DNA of 27,099 nucleotides from the IMG/VR virus record IMGVR_UViG_3300003972_000099, positions 1 to 27,099 of that record. One strand, given 5' to 3'. The notes below the pieces were generated by a model. It was not told the DNA's origin. It ran no database searches and was given only the letters and a program-made list of their open reading frames with translations. Made by a program: the position numbers and the translations under genes. Within the stretch, counting starts at the first letter, position 1. Every line of letters starts with the position of its first letter. This document shows positions 7,025 to 26,159 of this stretch, piece after piece. Source of the stretch: a virus. Taxonomy: Duplodnaviria; Caudoviricetes.

Positions 7025-7033
7025 ATTTTATCA
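7025..7033 (-). promoter_or_regulatory. Extended -10 box TGATAAAAT (upstream of tape measure)
   Basis: TGnTAnnnT built on the upstream TGA stop. Confidence 0.6.
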
Positions 7034-7465
7034 GTGTTGCTTTGCTAATTCCTCGTAGTATTCCCGTCTTGACGGCAATTCACCACCAATGGTTTCGGGG
7101 ACATATGGTTCGGTGTAGTAATACCTACCCCACTCTTTCTTTTCAGACGCCTTGATCTTCTTGTTGCCCTGATTCTCCTTTTCTTTCAGGGCACGCTCGG
7201 CTGCACAATAGGCTTCTCTGACGCGGAACTGCACCCGGTTGCTTGTGCTTCTGCACAGCCAGACTGGATGCCCGCACTTGGGGCAAATCTCGTCCTGAAG
7301 CCGTTGATAAGCCTCAAGCAACTTGAAATCGAAAGGAATCCACGGATCAGTCGGCTGCTCGTAGAACAGCATGGCGCACGGACGAATCCCCGCAGTGATC
7401 GACGCCTTGATCTTTGTGATGAGGTACCTATTCGCGGGCCAGGTCAGTACCTCGACTAAAAATCC
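7031..7465 (-). CDS. Tail assembly chaperone, C-terminal (-1 frame) part of the G-T type fusion
   Basis: The -1 frame is open from the slippery site (FLVEVLTWPANRYLITKIKASITAGIRPCA) into the 7031..7372 ORF; contains CPKCGHP. Confidence 0.85.
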   Translation of the reverse strand, partial: GFLVEVLTWPANRYLITKIKASITAGIRPCAMLFYEQPTDPWIPFDFKLLEAYQRLQDEICPKCGHPVWLCRSTSNRVQFRVREAYCAAERALKEKENQGNKKIKASEKKEWGRYYYTEPYVPETIGGELPSRREYYEELAKQH

Positions 7466-8007
7466 GCGTCAACTACCTGATCGAAGTACGCTGCGGTGAA
7501 AACGAGTTCGGACATCTTTGAAGTAATCTTGTCGAACTCGCCGTCTGGCAAGATGAACGCCAGTTCCTCTACCTTTTCCGGGGTCCAGTGGGTGTGGTCT
7601 TCTGCACCGTCAGGGCGGGTCACCAACTGGATAGCCTCAGCAACGTACTTGTAGTTGCACCACTCAGCCGCGTCGCCGTTGCTGGTGTCTTCTACGTCGA
7701 ACTTGGCGCGGGCTTCGTCGTTGATTGCCTTGACGACCTCTGGCGCGTAACCGCGAAGGTGGAACGTGTAGGTGCTGTCCTTGATGCGCTGCTTGAGTTC
7801 GTCCACCTTGGCAGCAATCTCATCGACCTTTTCGGGGTCGAGTTCGTCTGCAGCCTGCATGTTGTAGTGCTTGATGAGATACGCAGCCTCGATGTCAGTG
7901 TAAACGTCAACCGTGTCCTTCGGGTAACCAATACCCCTAGCAGCGTCGAGAATGCTGAAGGTGCCTTTTTCGGTGGCCTTCTCAACCAGTTCAATAACGT
8001 CAGCCAT
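7456..8007 (-). CDS. Tail assembly chaperone (G-like)
   Basis: 183 aa acidic protein between tail tube and tape measure genes; strong SD AAGGAGG; ends at the slippery site. Confidence 0.88.
   Translation of the reverse strand: MADVIELVEKATEKGTFSILDAARGIGYPKDTVDVYTDIEAAYLIKHYNMQAADELDPEKVDEIAAKVDELKQRIKDSTYTFHLRGYAPEVVKAINDEARAKFDVEDTSNGDAAEWCNYKYVAEAIQLVTRPDGAEDHTHWTPEKVEELAFILPDGEFDKITSKMSELVFTAAYFDQVVDADF
7459..7465 (-). other. Programmed -1 ribosomal frameshift site G-GAT-TTT(T)
   Basis: GCG GAT TTT TAG ends the chaperone ORF; a -1 slip joins the downstream ORF; canonical position before the tape measure gene. Confidence 0.85.
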
Positions 8008-8095: not shown

Positions 8096-8863
8096 TCAGG
8101 TTACAGTAACCACGCACGGGGTCGTTGCACCGGTTGCGGCATTGTGCGTTGCGGTGATGTTGGCCGTACCCGCGCCAACAGCAGTCACGACACCGTTGGA
8201 CGAAACGGTGGCAACGGACTCATCGCTGGACGACCACTCAACGACCTGTGTAGCGCGGTGACCACCAAGGGTCGCCTTGACAACACCGTGGTCACCAACA
8301 TCCAGAGCGAGCGTAACCGGAGACAGCGTAACCGGACCAGCGTTCTTGACCTGGGTGTTGACCGCAAGGTTACCCTGCGGCATGAGCCCCACGACGAACT
8401 TAACGCTGTCCTCGCCCTCGGTGTCGTCGTTTACCGTGTCCGTGATGAACTCGTAGACACTGATCCAGTCACCAGCAGCGGCAGGAGTTGCGACGCTCGT
8501 AGTGCGCTGTAGAACTCGCGTAACGACGATGACCGGCACGCGGGGGGTCTTGAGCAAGTTCCAAGCCTCAGCAGCCTCGGAACTCGTGTCGTCCGGCTTT
8601 GGCCGGAAGAACGCGAGAGTGCCCTCGAACTGTGCAAAACCACGGCTGGTGGCATTGCCGCGATCCTCTAGGGAACGGTCGTCCACGTCGTTTGACTCGG
8701 TGTTACCGGGCCACGTGGTGCCATCCCAGGCAATAGCGGGGGTGACCCGAGTGCCGTAGGTGTTGATCTCAGTTGCGGTAGGGGAGCGATAGTCGGCTAC
8801 GTCAGCCTTGGGGATAACCCAGATGTCAACGTTACCGTTTGAAGTAACCTTCTCGTCAGCCAT
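8096..8863 (-). CDS. Major tail (tube) protein 2 with C-terminal Ig-like (Big_2) domain
   Basis: N-terminal ADYRSPTATEIN tube motif; C-terminal VEWSSSDESVATVSSNGVVTAVGAGTANITAT is a textbook Big_2 signature. Confidence 0.9.
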   Translation of the reverse strand: MADEKVTSNGNVDIWVIPKADVADYRSPTATEINTYGTRVTPAIAWDGTTWPGNTESNDVDDRSLEDRGNATSRGFAQFEGTLAFFRPKPDDTSSEAAEAWNLLKTPRVPVIVVTRVLQRTTSVATPAAAGDWISVYEFITDTVNDDTEGEDSVKFVVGLMPQGNLAVNTQVKNAGPVTLSPVTLALDVGDHGVVKATLGGHRATQVVEWSSSDESVATVSSNGVVTAVGAGTANITATHNAATGATTPCVVTVT

Positions 8864-8868
8864 TTATA

Positions 8869-9405
8869 TCACGCAGCCAGTTCGTAGTTGATGTTAAGAT
8901 TCCCGTTCGGCTTGAAGCGAGCACCGTGCTTCAACATTGCGTTGTCTTCAACCAGGTCAACCGGGAAGTCGGTGGTGAAGCCGTACATCGAGATCGTCTG
9001 ACCCGCAGCAAATGCGTCAGTCGATGCGAAGCCGATTCGCTTGATGATGTAGAACTCGCGGTCTGGACCTAGGGTAAGGTCTCGGAACAGGTTGAATACC
9101 CCGTTGTCGTCAACGTCCTTGTCCCGGAAACCATCAAGAGAACCCTCATAGTTCTGGAACGTCGGGTTTGACACGTTGCCGATGTCGCAGATGCTCATCG
9201 AGTCATCCGTGTCCGAATCCGTCATGTTCAACGTGTAGCCATCAAGAATCGCGCAGGACACGTTGAAGACCATTGCGTCTTCATTGGTGGTGTACGCGAA
9301 CTGATCGTTCAACTCAGCGGACGTAGGAGCCGTTGGATCAGCAAACGCCTGCGGATAAGCCAACAGAATCGTAACGTTACCCCGCAGCACCTTCTCAAAT
9401 GCCAT
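8869..9405 (-). CDS. Major tail (tube) protein 1, paralogue of the next gene
   Basis: 178 aa; FADPTAPTSAELN motif; aligns by eye along its length with 8096..8863. Confidence 0.82.
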   Translation of the reverse strand: MAFEKVLRGNVTILLAYPQAFADPTAPTSAELNDQFAYTTNEDAMVFNVSCAILDGYTLNMTDSDTDDSMSICDIGNVSNPTFQNYEGSLDGFRDKDVDDNGVFNLFRDLTLGPDREFYIIKRIGFASTDAFAAGQTISMYGFTTDFPVDLVEDNAMLKHGARFKPNGNLNINYELAA

Positions 9406-10500: not shown

Positions 10501-10930
10501 GAACCGTCTCCTGGTTGACCCTTGCTTCAAGAGTGCGCTCGAACGGGTTGGACGAGCCCACGACGCCGTGTAGGACGTACTCGAACTCTGTAAGTGTCGT
10601 GTTGAGTGGGGATGACGTTACCGTGACGAGCATCCCAGGCCGTAGATCATCAGCGAACGCTTCAATAGGAATCTGAAACCGAACACCCCGCACTGTGGAC
10701 GTGTTCCCCGGAGCCTCAGCAGTCAACACTGAGCGGATCGGTTGCACACGGGCCTTACCGGAGTAGTACGTGGTGGTCTCCGCAGTCCATGAGTCAGTGT
10801 CAGGGTCGTACGATGGCTCACCATCAACCTCGTAGATGGCAACCTCGGCCACCATCGCGGACTCAGCAGAAGCCCTGAGTCCGTCCACCCACTTCTGTGT
10901 AAACAGCGGTCGTGTCACGCCCAGGCTCAT
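10493..10930 (-). CDS. Head-to-tail stopper (head closure) protein
   Basis: YDPDTDSW...YSGKARVQ motif; ATGA-coupled start at 10930; synteny. Confidence 0.75.
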   Translation of the reverse strand: MSLGVTRPLFTQKWVDGLRASAESAMVAEVAIYEVDGEPSYDPDTDSWTAETTTYYSGKARVQPIRSVLTAEAPGNTSTVRGVRFQIPIEAFADDLRPGMLVTVTSSPLNTTLTEFEYVLHGVVGSSNPFERTLEARVNQETVHG

Positions 10931-11280
10931 ACGTAGTCCCAAGGTGCGGCTTCAGGTGGTGGTGTCAGCCGAGCAACAGGCGGGAACACGATCTCGAAGT
11001 CGTCGTTGACTGCGCTGAGTGACATCTCTCGCATGTCCTTGGCCCGCTGCATGATGAGCGCGGCTGGCTTGACACCATCAACCGTGAGATCATCGGTCTT
11101 GACGTACTTGTAAGTCAACGCCTGGTCTGTAGCAATAACCTCTAGAGCAAGCGCGGTGGAAAGGAATGGGTCGTCTCCCCCGAGTACGGCAAATGACGCG
11201 ATCTGCTCGTCGCTGAAAATCTGTTCTTCCCCATCACCGAGGTCTGGGATAAGCAAACGAATGTCGTCAGTAATAGCCAT
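10927..11280 (-). CDS. Head-to-tail adaptor
   Basis: IRLLIPD...IFSDEQI...VKTDDLTVDG motif; first connector gene after the capsid cluster. Confidence 0.8.
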   Translation of the reverse strand: MAITDDIRLLIPDLGDGEEQIFSDEQIASFAVLGGDDPFLSTALALEVIATDQALTYKYVKTDDLTVDGVKPAALIMQRAKDMREMSLSAVNDDFEIVFPPVARLTPPPEAAPWDYV

Positions 11281-11315
11281 GTAAGCCTCTTTTCTACAGT
11301 CCTATTCTAGCGTAC

Positions 11316-11397
11316 AAAAGCGGGCCGGGAGCGTAGGGAGGAACGCTACAACCGGCCCGCTAGCGCGGCTCGGGAGGAAGGAGGCAATACACCGCGC
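11316..11397 (-). ncRNA. Candidate 82-nt two-hairpin small RNA with anti-SD (UUCCUCCC) loops
   Basis: Own extended -10 (TGTTAGAAT, 11404-11412) 6 nt upstream; stems GCGCGG/CCGCGC and AGCGGGCCGG/CCGGCCCGCU; terminal UUUU; separate upstream terminator; no start codon at the predicted +1. Confidence 0.65.
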
Positions 11398-11403
11398 AGA
11401 ATC

Positions 11404-11412
11404 ATTCTAACA
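11404..11412 (-). promoter_or_regulatory. Extended -10 box TGTTAGAAT (candidate sRNA promoter)
   Basis: After the terminator, 6 nt before the first stem; a second -10 (CGCTAGAAT, 11304-11312) follows the sRNA U-tract. Confidence 0.7.
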
Positions 11413-11415
11413 CAG

Positions 11416-11441
11416 AAAAGGCCCGCCTGAGCGGACCCTTT
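11416..11441 (-). terminator. Intrinsic terminator after the capsid operon
   Basis: AAAGGGUCCGC-UCAG-GCGGGCCUUUU; the G-U pairs form only on the - strand. Confidence 0.85.
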
Positions 11442-11734: not shown

Positions 11735-12871
11735 TCACTCGCCTGACCCGTCCGACCAGACAACTGCGTTAGCGGTCCACAGGGTACCGTTACCGATGAG
11801 ACGGATACGGAACTCAGCGGAGTCAGTGTCGAAGTCACCCTCGAACGGGCTGACCGCGCCGCCGCCAACGTAGTTACCGGTGAGGTTCTGCACACGGAGT
11901 TCAGGAGCCTCGTGACCGATCAACTGAAGACGCTCAAGCACTGGACGCCGGGTAGCGCCAGGAACAGGAACGAGGTACCACGCATCGCCCGTGACGTACT
12001 CGGACTCTAGCACGGTGATGTCGCTCAGTGGGTTGTACCCAGGGGCGGTGAACGCAAGGCTACCGTCCTGGATGGTGGCGAGGGTCTGGTTGAGAATGAA
12101 GTCCGCGTAAACACCGCGACCGACAGGAACAACCAACTTCCAACCACCGGTTACCTGGATCGGGCGACCGTTGATCGTACGCTGCGAAACCTGATACTTA
12201 GCAGCAATCAGAGCCTCGCGGGAGAGCGGTGCGTTTGCCGGGACTTGTGTGCCGTCAGGGTTGGTGTCCGCAGTCAACTGCTGTGAAGCACTGACGCCGT
12301 TGATGAGAGCCGTGAAGACCTCGTACTCCTCGGTGTCGAGAGCGACCTGAAGCATCTCGTTCGGAAGGTTCCGGAGGAACCCGATGGCGTCGTTGATGAA
12401 CGCCTCGAACGTGAACGCGGTCTTGAAACCACGCTTCTTGACACCAGCACTAGCCGACTCTTCCCCAGCCATCACGCTGTAGGGGTATGGCGCACCCTCG
12501 GGGACCGTAGGAGCAATGTGACGCGGAGAGCCGTCACCTAGAACGCCATCCTCCCACTGACCAACCAGGCTGTAGAGCACCGCCGGACGGAAGTCGGAAA
12601 CGGATCGAGTACCGGCAATCTGGTTCCAGACGCGGGGAGCCTCGTCGTACTGTGGGAGCACGTTGAGGTTGACGAGGTACGCGAGGTTGAGCGATGCGTC
12701 CGAAGTCGTCACCGCCTCCTGAAGCGTCCCCGCAGCAATCCGGTTGCCCCGAAGAGCCTTCTCGACTAGTTCACGCACGGCCTCGACCTTGCGCTTGGTT
12801 ACACCCGCTGGCGGCGTGAGCCGACCGTCAAGGGTGAACCAGTCCTTGTATTCCTTACTCATCGTTATCAT
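11735..12871 (-). CDS. Major capsid protein (HK97 fold, Mu gpT-like)
   Basis: 378 aa; EAVTTSD, RSVSDFRP, VPEGAPY, FTFEAFINDAIG, FEGDFDTD motifs; follows protease and cement genes. Confidence 0.92.
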   Translation of the reverse strand: MITMSKEYKDWFTLDGRLTPPAGVTKRKVEAVRELVEKALRGNRIAAGTLQEAVTTSDASLNLAYLVNLNVLPQYDEAPRVWNQIAGTRSVSDFRPAVLYSLVGQWEDGVLGDGSPRHIAPTVPEGAPYPYSVMAGEESASAGVKKRGFKTAFTFEAFINDAIGFLRNLPNEMLQVALDTEEYEVFTALINGVSASQQLTADTNPDGTQVPANAPLSREALIAAKYQVSQRTINGRPIQVTGGWKLVVPVGRGVYADFILNQTLATIQDGSLAFTAPGYNPLSDITVLESEYVTGDAWYLVPVPGATRRPVLERLQLIGHEAPELRVQNLTGNYVGGGAVSPFEGDFDTDSAEFRIRLIGNGTLWTANAVVWSDGSGE

Positions 12872-15925: not shown

Positions 15926-15934
15926 ACCTTATCA
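15926..15934 (-). promoter_or_regulatory. Extended -10 box TGATAAGGT (portal, leaderless)
   Basis: Built on the terL stop; 6 nt before ATG 15919. Confidence 0.6.
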
Positions 15935-18526
15935 TAGTTGACGCATAACGGTGAAGTAATGAGGTACATTCACCATGACTTCCTCTGGTGACATTCTAAT
16001 TTTATCGCCTTTGTTCAATCCAAGCAGCGGATCGTCCAAATCGATGTTGAGCGACGAGTAAATTGCAGCGTCCGCGTGGTCAGGAGACTTCAAGCCACGG
16101 TCGTTCATCTCTTCCTTGGACTCGATCACGAGACCACCGGATTGCTTGTTGAACGAGTAACGCGGACCCATCAATTCATCTTGCAGGCTTTCGTCTTCCG
16201 GATCAATGTCGATCTGCCCCTGCGCCATACGGAGTCTGAAGTAGTCCCACATAAACGCGCGGAAGTTGTGCCACTGACGCCGGTCAGGGCTCGCTCCGGA
16301 GCCGTGTACCTCGACTACCGTGTAGAGGCCGTTCGAGAGCAGCACCAGTTGGTCCTTGACGCCGCCACCGACACCATCAGAGTCTACGTATACGATCTCT
16401 GCACCCTTATCGAGCGCAAGTCGGTGAACCCTTGTGGCGGTCTCTGTTGTCTCGGTCTTTCCCCACGAGTCCACGTATCGGATACAACCGTTGTTGTTCT
16501 CGTAGACAACACTCTTGTCCGTGCCCATTCGGGCTACGTCAACACCAAGGACAGGCCGCTTTTCTAGGTCAGGCTTGATCTCACAAACCTTCGCTTTTTC
16601 CACGATTTCCTGCGTGATAAGCGTGTAGTCGTCATCGTTGGCGAACTCACCAAGAACACGAGCCTTGAATCGAGCGGAATTCTCGCCAAACTCTTTCTTC
16701 TTGTCTTCGACATACGTAGGGCCGGTGAGTCGTTCCAGAGCCTCTGGTGACATCTCATACTTCTCGTCCGTGAAGTTCGGAGAGTCGAGTACGGAGATGG
16801 TGTGACAGACCCACCCGAGGTCTTCCCGGAAAATCTTGGCGAAGTAGGAGCCGGGGTTGGTCGGGTTGGCGATGAGGATACGTCGAGAGCCTTCGTTCGA
16901 CGTAATGTTCGACAGTGCTTCGATCAAGTCAGCGCTGAGACCAACAGCCTCATCACCGACCGCGAGCACAGCGGAGTCGTGGATACCCTGGAAGGAGTCG
17001 TCTTCCTTGTTGTCCGGTGGCTTACGACCGAACCCGAGGATCGCCCCTCCGTCGGTCTTCCAGTGAGCGTCAGCGGTGATGTAACCGGGAAGTTCGTGGT
17101 CGATCAACCCTTCTTTGTATCGCTTGGACACGAGGCTCTTGAGTTTACGAACCTCACGCCAGACGATAGCGTTGATCTGAGCAGTGTTGGGGGCTGTCGA
17201 GGCGACGAAGGCGTTGGGATAGCGTGTGTCGATCCACCAGCAGATGAGCACAGCAACCAAAAATGAGTTGTGGGTAGGCACCAGGTGCTCGCCCGCAAGG
17301 AACAGGTGACTGTCTGACCCCACCTGAATGCACTGGCTGCGACCTGGGCCGATCTCCCGTACGGAAATAACCGTGCGCATCGTGCGCCGACTGGTCTGCG
17401 TCAGTGGGGTGTCCCGGTTGAACGCCTGGTCCTTATACTGTCCTTGCGTAAAGGGCGACCGTAGGGCGTTGAACACGATCCGGTAACGGGTGCCCACGTT
17501 ACGACCGTCCAGGTAAGTGCGCTCTGGACTGATGCTGGCGCGCATCCCCAACCCTCGGATAAGTTCCACGGTGTCATAAGCAAGTTCCTGGTTCATCAGG
17601 TCAATGCCGCACAGGTTCCCGTGGATAACGAACCCGTCTGTATCCATCAAGCCTCGCAGCAACTCCCACCGCTGGTGCTCGGAAGCACGCTGGTAGTCCG
17701 AGGGGATGTGCTTATTGTTCATCAGGTTCATGCCCTTGGCTACCTGAACAAATCCTTGGCGCGCAAACGTGTACCGGTATTTGCCGCCCGGCGTTTTATC
17801 GAGCGTGTAGCCTACCTTGCGAAACTCGTCAATGATATAACGTCCGTCATCGCCTAGAGTCATTTCTGCGCGGCAACTCGTGCCGTCCCCGAGCCACGCA
17901 CCTACCACGTAGGGGTCCAGCGGCAAGTCGGCTTCAGGCAACTGTAGCGCCCGGTTAATGGGAACGATGTGGTTGGAGGCGTGCTTGTTCGACCCGTTGA
18001 CATACGTCAGCGAGTTGGCGATATCTGTTGTCTCCTTAACACTTCCCGCATTCCAGTGATCCCGCCAGTCGGTCACAGGACCGTTGCGCCGGACCTTTTT
18101 GGCCTCGCGGTGGTCCAAGGTCACCCATTCGTGCGGTGCATTAGTGCGCAGCACGGCTCCGTCTGAGAACGTGACCTCGTACATCGGCATGTCAAAGACT
18201 TCTGACTTGGCTACGACCGGTGCGGGGTTGCCCTGCTCATCGAATACCATGTCTCCGACTTGCAGTGTCTCGATGGTCTTCCAGCCGAGAGTTGTGGCGA
18301 TAGGGGTGTCCAGGGCCAGAGCCTTGCCCACGCCGTGACCCGCCTTGACGGCGACGGACTTGTTCTCAACGACCGACCGCGCGATTTCGCGCTGCTTGGA
18401 CCATAGACGTATTCCGAGCATGTAGTCGGCCCACGCTACGGGGTCGTTGAAGTAAGATGCGGACTTTCCCTTACGTTCAACTTCCTCCGCCACGATCTCC
18501 GCGACTTTAGGGAGGAAGTTAGCCAT
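15932..18526 (-). CDS. terL: Terminase large subunit containing an intein (512 aa after splicing)
   Basis: Walker A GHGVGK/S split by the intein; Walker B AVGDEA; IANPT coupling motif; nuclease LGVDVARMGTDKSV and SPDHADA. Confidence 0.97.
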   Translation of the reverse strand: MANFLPKVAEIVAEEVERKGKSASYFNDPVAWADYMLGIRLWSKQREIARSVVENKSVAVKAGHGVGKALALDTPIATTLGWKTIETLQVGDMVFDEQGNPAPVVAKSEVFDMPMYEVTFSDGAVLRTNAPHEWVTLDHREAKKVRRNGPVTDWRDHWNAGSVKETTDIANSLTYVNGSNKHASNHIVPINRALQLPEADLPLDPYVVGAWLGDGTSCRAEMTLGDDGRYIIDEFRKVGYTLDKTPGGKYRYTFARQGFVQVAKGMNLMNNKHIPSDYQRASEHQRWELLRGLMDTDGFVIHGNLCGIDLMNQELAYDTVELIRGLGMRASISPERTYLDGRNVGTRYRIVFNALRSPFTQGQYKDQAFNRDTPLTQTSRRTMRTVISVREIGPGRSQCIQVGSDSHLFLAGEHLVPTHNSFLVAVLICWWIDTRYPNAFVASTAPNTAQINAIVWREVRKLKSLVSKRYKEGLIDHELPGYITADAHWKTDGGAILGFGRKPPDNKEDDSFQGIHDSAVLAVGDEAVGLSADLIEALSNITSNEGSRRILIANPTNPGSYFAKIFREDLGWVCHTISVLDSPNFTDEKYEMSPEALERLTGPTYVEDKKKEFGENSARFKARVLGEFANDDDYTLITQEIVEKAKVCEIKPDLEKRPVLGVDVARMGTDKSVVYENNNGCIRYVDSWGKTETTETATRVHRLALDKGAEIVYVDSDGVGGGVKDQLVLLSNGLYTVVEVHGSGASPDRRQWHNFRAFMWDYFRLRMAQGQIDIDPEDESLQDELMGPRYSFNKQSGGLVIESKEEMNDRGLKSPDHADAAIYSSLNIDLDDPLLGLNKGDKIRMSPEEVMVNVPHYFTVMRQL
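17267..18322 (-). mobile_element. Class 3 intein (352 aa) with LAGLIDADG homing endonuclease
   Basis: Starts ALALDTPIAT (Ala1), block B HEW, block F SQCIQV, ends VPTHN/S; endonuclease motifs VGAWLGDG and LRGLMDTDG. Confidence 0.95.
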
Positions 18527-25280: not shown

Positions 25281-25543
25281 CAATTCTTGTCCTCAATATT
25301 GATTCTAGCGTTCTCGATATACCTGCGGGTCAGTTCTACTGCCCACGTTCTCTCACCGATCTCCGGCACATCCGTGAAGTAGTATTCACCCGCGTAGTTA
25401 CCCGCAAATGTCTCAGTTACGAACGCAGCGTCCAACTCGCGCCAGTTACCCGGTCCGAAGAACTTATCAGCCCTTGCAATAGCGGCTGCCTCCAAACCCG
25501 ACTTTGTGCTACTTACTACCGTTACTCGAAACTCGTGATTCAT
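25280..25543 (-). CDS. Hypothetical protein (87 aa)
   Basis: Start moved to ATG 25543 (ATGA overlap, AGGAGG SD; MNHEFRV). Confidence 0.75.
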   Translation of the reverse strand: MNHEFRVTVVSSTKSGLEAAAIARADKFFGPGNWRELDAAFVTETFAGNYAGEYYFTDVPEIGERTWAVELTRRYIENARINIEDKN

Positions 25544-25887
25544 TCTTCCTCCTGCTCCATAAACTCGTCGCGGTTCCTCACTAGGAACCACGGCGGACCA
25601 AACGGAGAGAACCGACGCCGGGTGTTAGTCAGAAACACAGCGTTACGCCAACCGTCTGAATCCTCTGGTCCTGTCCGCTCGATTATCTTTTTGCCGTTCT
25701 CATCGAGAATGAACTCTCGGTAGATCAGGAACGGCCAGCGATAGTCCATGCCATCAACAGCGATATTGCTCGGGTCAAACCCGCGCTTCTTCCACCAGTC
25801 GATCAGGCTGTCCGTTCCGGGAGCAGACCAGCGAACCTTGTACCTTGTCACTTCTCGTCCTTCATCTTGCTCATAGCGCATCCCCAT
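25540..25887 (-). CDS. Hypothetical protein (115 aa)
   Basis: TGATG overlap; (GGA)n SD. Confidence 0.78.
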   Translation of the reverse strand: MGMRYEQDEGREVTRYKVRWSAPGTDSLIDWWKKRGFDPSNIAVDGMDYRWPFLIYREFILDENGKKIIERTGPEDSDGWRNAVFLTNTRRRFSPFGPPWFLVRNRDEFMEQEEE

Positions 25888-26159
25888 CAGTCCTCCTCCT
25901 CCTCCTTTATCAGCAGACGACGCAGCGACTTAACCTTGATCCCACGCTTCGGTCTCGGGCCAAACGAGGCCCATGCTGCCGGGAGGGAGATCGGCCAGAA
26001 AAGCGCCATTGCGGTGTGAATCAACACATCTGTGTCGCTAACACCGTTGTCCCCGAAATTATCGCGCCACCAACGCAGGGTAGCGCGTGCCGAAACGACA
26101 GCAATAAAAAACCACGCTACTACTGCTAATGCGAGCGATACCCAAATCACGTTATTCAT
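25887..26159 (-). CDS. Hypothetical membrane protein (90 aa)
   Basis: Start moved to ATG 26159 (ATGA overlap, GGGAGG SD); two hydrophobic segments, ALFWPISL motif. Confidence 0.75.
   Translation of the reverse strand: MNNVIWVSLALAVVAWFFIAVVSARATLRWWRDNFGDNGVSDTDVLIHTAMALFWPISLPAAWASFGPRPKRGIKVKSLRRLLIKEEEED

Follow-up and report, generated by a model that had tools for sequence, protein, structure and literature searches.

The window, as we call the whole 27,099-nt stretch of viral DNA analyzed here, is that half of a tailed phage genome which holds the packaging and structural genes. Its major capsid protein, which served as the anchor for gathering the loci of relatives, is 43–44% identical to prophage capsids in Leifsonia, Frigoribacterium, and Lacisediminihabitans. 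The host of the phage is likely actinobacterial, given this likeness and the capsid identity to cultured Microbacterium phages. The features between and including the capsid gene and the first connector gene, all on the minus strand, are as follows.

11735..12871, minus strand: major capsid protein gene, 378 aa (PF25209; 33–40% identity to annotated Microbacterium phage capsids)
11466..11738, minus strand: 90-aa ORF 3' of the capsid gene, the last before the terminator; without a family match, with a similar ORF in L005
11416..11441, minus strand: intrinsic-terminator-like hairpin and U run at the end of the capsid operon; a hairpin of this type precedes the unit in many relatives
11404..11412, minus strand: extended −10 (TGn-TAGAAT, hexamer 11409–11404), predicted promoter of the RNA
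11397–11316, minus strand: two-hairpin unit of 82 nt, defined by sequence and fold
11363..11397, minus strand: hairpin 1, a 7-bp stem with a 21-nt open loop holding two CCUCC copies, the predicted seed
11316..11361, minus strand: hairpin 2 and U run, with a covarying lower stem and a lineage-specific CU apical loop
11304..11309, minus strand: second −10 (TAGAAT), predicted promoter of the connector/tail genes
10927..11280, minus strand: first connector-block gene, 117 aa, putative head-tail adapter (phrog_18316), with its ATG at 11280 and led by a Shine–Dalgarno (SD) sequence in the window

An earlier note, made from the letters of the window, had drawn this region as a terminator, an extended −10, a gap of 6 nt, the 82-nt unit, and a second −10, and had pointed out that the capsid operon already possesses a terminator. 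All of these minus-strand coordinates were confirmed in the sequence, including the hairpin and U run upstream of the unit (11441–11416) and the 6 nt between the first −10 hexamer and the first stem, whose G lies at 11397. Folding of the 82-nt unit returned the two hairpins as drawn (−40.4 kcal/mol, z −5.66), with none of 200 shuffles equally stable, and left the three CCUCC copies exposed as proposed (unpaired probabilities 0.96, 0.95, and 0.99). The note has one octamer exposed on both hairpins; in loop 2 its first U is paired and seven of the eight nucleotides are exposed. The window loops contain CCUCCUUCCUCCC and UCCUCCCU, and TTCCTCCC occurs four times in the window against 0.86 expected (0/100 shuffles). 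Hairpin 2 carries a UU bulge (11351–11350), which is the conserved bulge discussed below with one extra U, under G-C and A-U pairs, and it is likely to serve as both terminator and protein site. A strict sigma-70 scan of the window listed neither −10 promoter, and a terminator scan of the window listed neither the upstream terminator nor hairpin 2. A consensus −35 is absent from both −10 boxes. The window has no tRNA and no tmRNA.

Three other minus-strand regions of the window deserve mention. The terminase large subunit (15932–18526, 864 aa) includes a segment, residues about 43–420, that matches terminase-labelled profiles apart from the main block and ends in an H-N-S junction. We take such a junction to be typical of inteins, and the insert is probably an intein. 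At 7031–8007 two consecutive ORFs match a single tail assembly chaperone profile (phrog_20192), one its N-terminal and the other its C-terminal part, which would fit a programmed frameshift, and two tandem major-tail-protein paralogs (phrog_2491) occupy 8096–9405, the second with an Ig-like C-terminal domain.

Relatives of the element and covariation of its stems

Judged by comparison of sequences and predicted folds, the window element is one copy of an uncatalogued folded-RNA family conserved in many phages. A fixed detector, requiring a stem of at least six pairs topped by a pyrimidine loop with CCUCC or CCUUCC, no more than 300 nt before the adapter gene, was positive at 25 of 52 distinct loci before this gene (including close kin and one terminator-loop match, L150), as against 0/52 in antisense and 0/51 in the next 310 nt. 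At the 27 loci where it failed, some relatives are clearly without the unit at the adapter site, and copies plain by eye, for example at L060, L075, L094, and L099, were missed. Adapter homologs lie downstream of the unit in 28 of the 32 copies clustered. Cultured phages with a copy, Microbacterium and Arthrobacter phages among them, are Lupine, Necrophoxinus, Jacko, Wolfstar, Fork, ISF9, Amigo, and Molivia; three Microbacteriaceae prophages have one as well.

Two main layouts were found, either two hairpins as in the window or one long hairpin topped by a CU loop, the latter in Lupine, Necrophoxinus, Jacko, Wolfstar, Fork, and ISF9. In the Arthrobacter phages Amigo and Molivia a CCUCC-loop hairpin occupies the same seat before the adapter, and in Pioneer3 the stem is kept and the loop lost. 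Loop length ranges from about 7 to 23 nt across copies. The twin loops of the earlier note did not prove to be a feature of the family, since relatives usually have one CU loop and the second is mostly restricted to the window lineage and a few others such as L115. A search by the twin-loop pattern gave 43 loci, L049 being the sole known relative among them, and model R1 matched none of the 34 of these that were searched. Models R1–R3 are weak, missing the single-hairpin layout of phages such as Lupine, and a non-match in G004 or G006 does not mean absence. When the intergenic region was compared with 50,697 phages by blastn, seven short chance matches resulted.

Among close copies, all 82 nt of the unit in L005 are identical to those of the window although the terminator and −10 differ. 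The unit of X19 differs from that of the window at four places, each of which lies in loop 1 or in the pair that closes it (U-G to U-A), and the X19 terminator is heavily changed; hairpin 2 is unaltered in L005, X13, X14, and X19. The changes to the −10 of L005 and X19 are confined to the variable NNN positions.

The unit is also found away from the capsid operon. In WaterT it lies between genes 20 and 21, complete with the two motifs and a −10 of its own, and the gene that it precedes is the one upstream of terminase; G009 and G003 carry it at non-capsid sites. IMG/VR was also scanned with patterns that asked for CTCC and, after it, the bulged helix; a filter for extra base pairs outside the pattern kept 4/116, 15/91, and 20/113 matches (covering 6/64, 33/64, and 57/64 parts). 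The 15 kept of 91, three of which were known before, have 6–9 extra pairs and the remaining 76 have 0–3. These pattern-found copies follow capsid, terminase, ribonucleotide reductase, or thioredoxin genes, or sit elsewhere, in unrelated phages, and were barred from the bulge and CTCC counts because both features had selected them. In a shallow search of Microbacteriaceae genomes, with 33 candidates scored per genome, matches were obtained in 2 of 151, both in prophage context.

Individual loci have peculiarities of their own. At L095 (3956–4350) an unrelated 131-aa ORF, HNH-like by eye, is inserted between the element and the adapter gene and begins directly after the second −10. tRNA genes lie beside the element at L066 (3029–3367), and a tRNA lies downstream of it in a Leifsonia prophage (L173, 4593–4664). 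L171, a contig of the phage clade with 53% capsid identity found in a Prevotella-labelled bin, is probably misbinned. The copies at L476, L485, and L531 sit amid repeated TACTTTACCGGCG motifs, and two of them are followed by a palindrome that is presumably parS-like. In Molivia (L186, 4180–4330) and Amigo (L187, 4180–4360) the CCUCC hairpin ends a structured stretch of roughly 150–180 nt with its own −10, possibly a larger RNA.

The earlier note had named stem covariation set against loop conservation in related phages as an informative comparison. The stems do covary and the CCUCC loop stays open, being more than 80% unpaired in 28 of 41 copies, where the 41-copy counts here and below omit three hairpins of Arthrobacter and Curtobacterium phages with undelimited 5' ends. 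Pairing of hairpin 2 in 17 two-hairpin copies reaches 89% versus 68% when shuffled (0/500) and 42–59% in slid controls; 8 of its 11 pairs vary on both sides in these copies, and G-U is among the covarying pairs. A model-fitted alignment of 37 copies agrees with the covariation, but leans towards its own structure. The flanking −10 boxes, covarying stems, and open CCUCC loop bear out the view of the element as an insulated, conserved, structured noncoding RNA unit, and we regard it as highly probable that the element is some kind of functional structured RNA.

Predicted pairing of the loop with ribosome-binding sites

The 16S tail of four Microbacteriaceae genomes, taken from Rfam-located 16S genes, is GAUCACCUCCUUU, and its core is common with the loop CCUCC. 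Four GGATCACCTCC matches considered as 16S genes were rejected, not being 16S. The match to the 16S anti-SD core given in the earlier note stands, but close mimicry of the tail is not supported as a feature of the family; exact CACCUCC occurs in 3 of 41 copies.

In Lupine, mean loop pairing is −9.6 kcal/mol for 27 structural genes versus −12.6 for 59 leftward and −14.7 for 23 left-arm genes, both groups non-structural (p = 3e-4), with annotated starts used for all genes apart from the adapter, whose start was moved 9 nt to the ATG after its −10. The portal, protease, and adapter genes of this phage are flagged leaderless and two more look leaderless by eye. It may be that late genes of phages commonly have weak SDs, and their occurrence does not prove targeting. 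Many non-structural starts of Lupine (L628/L629) share an ACACAAC-AGAAGGAG motif, and the Lupine loop complements up to 10 nt of it.

We also scored each loop against the predicted ribosome-binding sites (RBSs) of every genome and removed loop and genome means, a comparison that uses heuristic gene starts and partly hand-picked loops. The own-RBS advantage in a first set of 10 genomes was −0.52 kcal/mol (0/20000 permutations; 10/10 genomes negative; p = 0.026 on medians). ORFs overlapping the element were ruled out as its source, the signal being unchanged without three such sites. RBSs on the strand opposite to the RNA, which is the strand of most early genes and stands here for the non-structural genes, gave −0.74 (p = 0.0002, 9 genomes), same-strand RBSs −0.19 (p = 0.07), and internal SD-like sites −0.10 (p = 0.12); an antisense SD-like control was weakly positive (−0.16, p = 0.014). 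A second set, in which the loop rule chose the wrong loop in four genomes and Jacko and Molivia are kin of phages in the first, gave −0.33 over all RBSs (p = 0.005, 18/21 genomes with enough sites) and −0.51 on the opposite strand (p = 0.005, 11 genomes). In this set neither same-strand RBSs (p = 0.22) nor internal sites (p = 0.31) were significant, nor was its capsid-clade subset, either on the opposite strand (5 genomes, −0.19, p = 0.22) or over all RBSs (13 genomes, p = 0.09). G015, a close relative of the window phage, has a positive residual, the window itself being the late-gene half of its genome only.

The loop therefore pairs better with the non-structural RBSs of its own phage than with those of others, a signal that is real and modest (about 0.5 kcal/mol) and of which shared tuning to the host could be the source. 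The earlier note had envisaged host or phage mRNAs as targets, a choice that can be narrowed in that the loops track the phages' own non-structural RBSs. A duplex scan of loop 1 across the window revealed no single standout target. Among the RBSs of the window, the one that matches loop 1 best (−21.5 kcal/mol) consists of GGA repeats at about 25890–25910 (minus strand) and serves the ORF at 25540–25887; these repeats also encode the acidic tail of the upstream ORF, and the match may be due to chance.

The reading that we favor, with somewhat better than even confidence, is that the element is a late, trans-acting small RNA that would mask strong SD sites, mainly those of the phage's own early genes, and block their translation late. 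If instead it were a general host shut-off RNA, host SD-led mRNAs would be masked, leaderless phage mRNAs would win the ribosomes, and the phage RBS match would reflect common host tuning. CCUCC being the core of the host-family 16S tail fits this alternative, as do the leaderless-looking first genes of late transcripts in Lupine, the 22 of 41 downstream genes of the same appearance, and the multi-target precedent of 6C RNA. It nevertheless seems to us unlikely, since only 3 of 41 loops copy the exact tail, SDs are still present on many late genes, and the loops follow their own early RBS variants, as in Amigo (GUUCCUCC vs GGAGGAAC). An example of a phage's own early RBS is GAAGGAGGAG.

The bulged helix and the predicted transcription unit

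The earlier note had stressed hairpin 2 for its CU loop; its most conserved part is instead a U-bulged helix, which had been missed. Variation is lowest in this helix at a bulge whose first nucleotide is U and in the two pairs, G-C and A-U, that lie above the bulge. The motif G-U-N-G-A / U-C-C occurs in 24 of 44 hand-delimited copies and in none of 44 reverse complements, or in 22/40 once four copies first spotted by the bulge pattern are dropped, and most of the 20 copies without it keep the CU loop. With a bulge pyrimidine after a Watson–Crick pair, followed by G-C and A-U, the helix has the secondary-structure signature of the arginine-sandwich motif of HIV TAR and 7SK, in which, according to the available text of PMC6189040, bulge U23 triples with A27-U38; the A-U of the phage helix would correspond to this triple partner of TAR. 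The TAR and 7SK motifs belong to eukaryotic and viral transcription control (PMC6189040, available text), and the likeness would be convergent. By this analogy with TAR we predict a protein that would contact the U-bulged helix through an arginine; no obvious arginine-rich small protein was found among the 21 window ORFs scanned.

This helix raises the question of a protein-binding or decoy RNA, in which the bulged helix and pyrimidine loop would be protein sites, for instance to hold back a translation or defence factor of the host or to act as a scaffold for a phage protein, and mRNA pairing would play no part. The low variability of the bulge and of the pairs above it in a TAR/7SK layout (PMC6189040, available text) agrees with such a role, and the prophage copy L578 retains the bulge and is without CCUCC. 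We consider it improbable all the same, because 20 of 44 copies are without the bulge, most of them with a CU loop, because loop length is variable (about 7 to 23 nt) and covaries with the phage's own RBSs, and because an arginine-rich candidate partner is not obvious among the 21 window ORFs scanned.

Turning to transcription, 35 of 41 copies have a TANNNT box at a distance of 2–12 nt from the first stem, on its 5' side, versus 3 of 41 at 22–32 nt; the former count is partly circular, since the boxes were visible when the copy spans were delimited by hand. A second −10 follows within 75 nt downstream in 39/41 copies, and in 22/41 the next gene starts 5–8 nt after a −10 box and so looks leaderless; in WaterT and G009, by comparison, that gene is led by a strong SD. 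The U tract is weak at many 3' ends (at least five T in 14 nt in 29/41). The element is likely transcribed as a separate small RNA of 60–85 nt, and its own −10, the second −10, the leaderless next gene, and relocation among gene contexts together argue that this RNA would be made separately and act in trans. Contigs assembled from RNA runs (X15, X16, and X18) cover the capsid operon and adapter but not 11309–11409, and their ends differ; they are uninformative, as standard libraries lose short RNAs; the X19 contig spans the unit and may be DNA.

A cis-acting leader or attenuator of the connector/tail operon, with read-through from the first −10 and control of termination or of the adapter RBS by the loop or hairpin 2, appears decidedly improbable. 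In favor of it, the usual seat of the unit is immediately 5' of the adapter gene, long-range folds of the window allow loop 1 to pair with the region of the adapter RBS (−12.6 kcal/mol), U tracts are weak, and the next gene of WaterT and G009 has its strong SD. Such a leader is nonetheless hard to accept for a unit that moves between unrelated gene contexts and sits before genes without an SD to hide; the next gene has its own −10 in 39/41 copies, its leaderless look in 22/41 disfavors cis control, and same-strand RBSs give no significant own-loop match. It is very improbable that the unit is without RNA function, being just a further terminator or insulator whose loop is of low complexity, or an element that acts as DNA: hairpin 2 does look like an intrinsic terminator, the loop is lost in Pioneer3, and the unit is absent at the site in several relatives, but the open CCUCC loop (25 vs 0) and the bulge (24 vs 0) are strand-specific, G-U pairs are among the covarying ones, and a dedicated −10 is present where there is already an upstream terminator.

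Known small RNAs and the proposed role

Covariance search of Rfam, which the earlier note had suggested, gave no family match to the window unit at gathering thresholds, and at E up to 10 only unrelated terminator-like scraps. The unit likewise drew no match in 20 loci of the capsid clade searched at gathering, in 18 loci searched at E 0.5, or in 10 searched at E 2. The families regarded as leads (6C, cuckoo, RsaE, C4, and Mu-gpT-DE) were covered by these searches. RsaE is a staphylococcal small RNA (sRNA) with a C-rich loop, and membership in it was rejected because there is no Rfam hit and the nearest named relatives are actinophages. Of the resemblance to 6C, cuckoo, and RsaE RNAs drawn in the earlier note, the open anti-SD loop on covarying stems remains, whereas the defining features and the Rfam scores do not agree.

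The cuckoo RNAs of Alphaproteobacteria (RSs0680/CcsR1-4, ar14) are likewise short hairpins with variable, covarying stems and an anti-SD-like CCUCC loop, for which RBS masking has been proposed (PMC4615179, available text), and the phage element shares this open anti-SD loop on variable, covarying stems. Cuckoo RNAs comprise 2–4 adjacent hairpins, each loop with CCUCCUCCC (PMC4615179, available text), a combination that was not found in the phage element, which unlike them is phage-borne and usually has one loop of variable sequence together with the U-bulged helix. The Rfam models of ar14 and CcsR1 gave no hit in the window; the best score, 22.5 bits on CcsR1 against a gathering threshold of 65.3, came from extra hairpins beside the L330 copy. 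Extra C-rich hairpins lie beside the pattern-found copies at L330 (2527–2601) and L517 (2416–2475), below gathering on CcsR1 and SorX, which suggests small-RNA clusters in proteobacterial-type phages.

The 6C RNA (B11) of Actinobacteria is of the same two-hairpin size class and likely from the same host phylum, and pairs C-rich loops with G-rich RBSs without a chaperone (PMC6486639, available text); this Hfq-free pairing is borrowed here as a working model. It is a bacterial gene, conserved across high-GC Gram-positives, with six conserved cytosines in its stem-loops (PMC6486639, available text), where the phage loops have CCUCC repeats and no C6 run, and the copies that the shallow search of 151 Microbacteriaceae genomes found were those of prophages. 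Staphylococcal sRNAs with C-rich loops, such as RNAIII, also direct unpaired UCCC/CCUCC motifs against RBSs (PMC4615179, available text), but they are chromosomal, with other hosts and another architecture, and the phage element is without an Rfam match. HnrS and the Hfq-bound sRNAs of lambda are phage-encoded short RNAs that block RBSs, as proposed here, acting on specific host mRNAs in Hfq-containing enterobacteria or vibrios (PMC13502914, available text); the present element has in contrast a generic anti-SD seed, lies among late genes of lytic actinophages, and has phage early mRNAs as its predicted targets.

No description of this RNA family was found in the literature searched. The available text of PMC7302621 gives repeated motifs for clusters EC, EF, EG, and EI and no RNA for ED. 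Six contig identifiers sought in three supplements of PMC10690425 (10,006 viral candidate RNAs) and four motif strings sought in one gave 0 matches in those files, and an unnamed entry in its alignments is possible. The element would be a new, phage-borne kind of anti-SD small RNA with an added TAR-like bulge that, from its sequence features, lacks what defines cuckoo, 6C, and staphylococcal sRNAs.

In the late, trans-acting small RNA that we favor, host RNA polymerase would transcribe from the first −10 and stop at hairpin 2, and late timing would follow from the place of the unit in a late-gene region and from its −10, which is of the type that those genes have. The open CCUCC loop would then cover strong SDs, chiefly on phage early mRNAs, and block their translation, by loop–RBS pairing that would need no Hfq, as for 6C RNA. 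SD-led host mRNAs would also be affected, and late genes would be spared inasmuch as the genes that open their transcripts have a leaderless look or a weak SD. More tentatively, and as a possibility that we consider less probable than not, these parts may form a translational early-to-late switch, in which the late RNA masks co-evolving early SDs, leaderless late mRNAs escape, and the TAR-like bulge recruits an arginine-rich protein in hosts without Hfq.

Early-gene shut-off in lytic actinophages is poorly known, and in the available text on the transcriptome of mycobacteriophage Kampy an active lowering of early expression is left open (PMC4626039). SEA-PHAGES isolates cultured on Microbacterium foliorum and Arthrobacter carry the element without annotation, which makes the proposal directly testable, with Pioneer3 as a natural loop-less comparison. 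The bulged helix could also be used as bait for the sRNA-binding proteins that are still missing in Actinobacteria. If the proposal is true, a small RNA directed at SD-led mRNAs as a class, combined with leaderless late genes, would provide these phages with a translational mechanism for the early-to-late switch.
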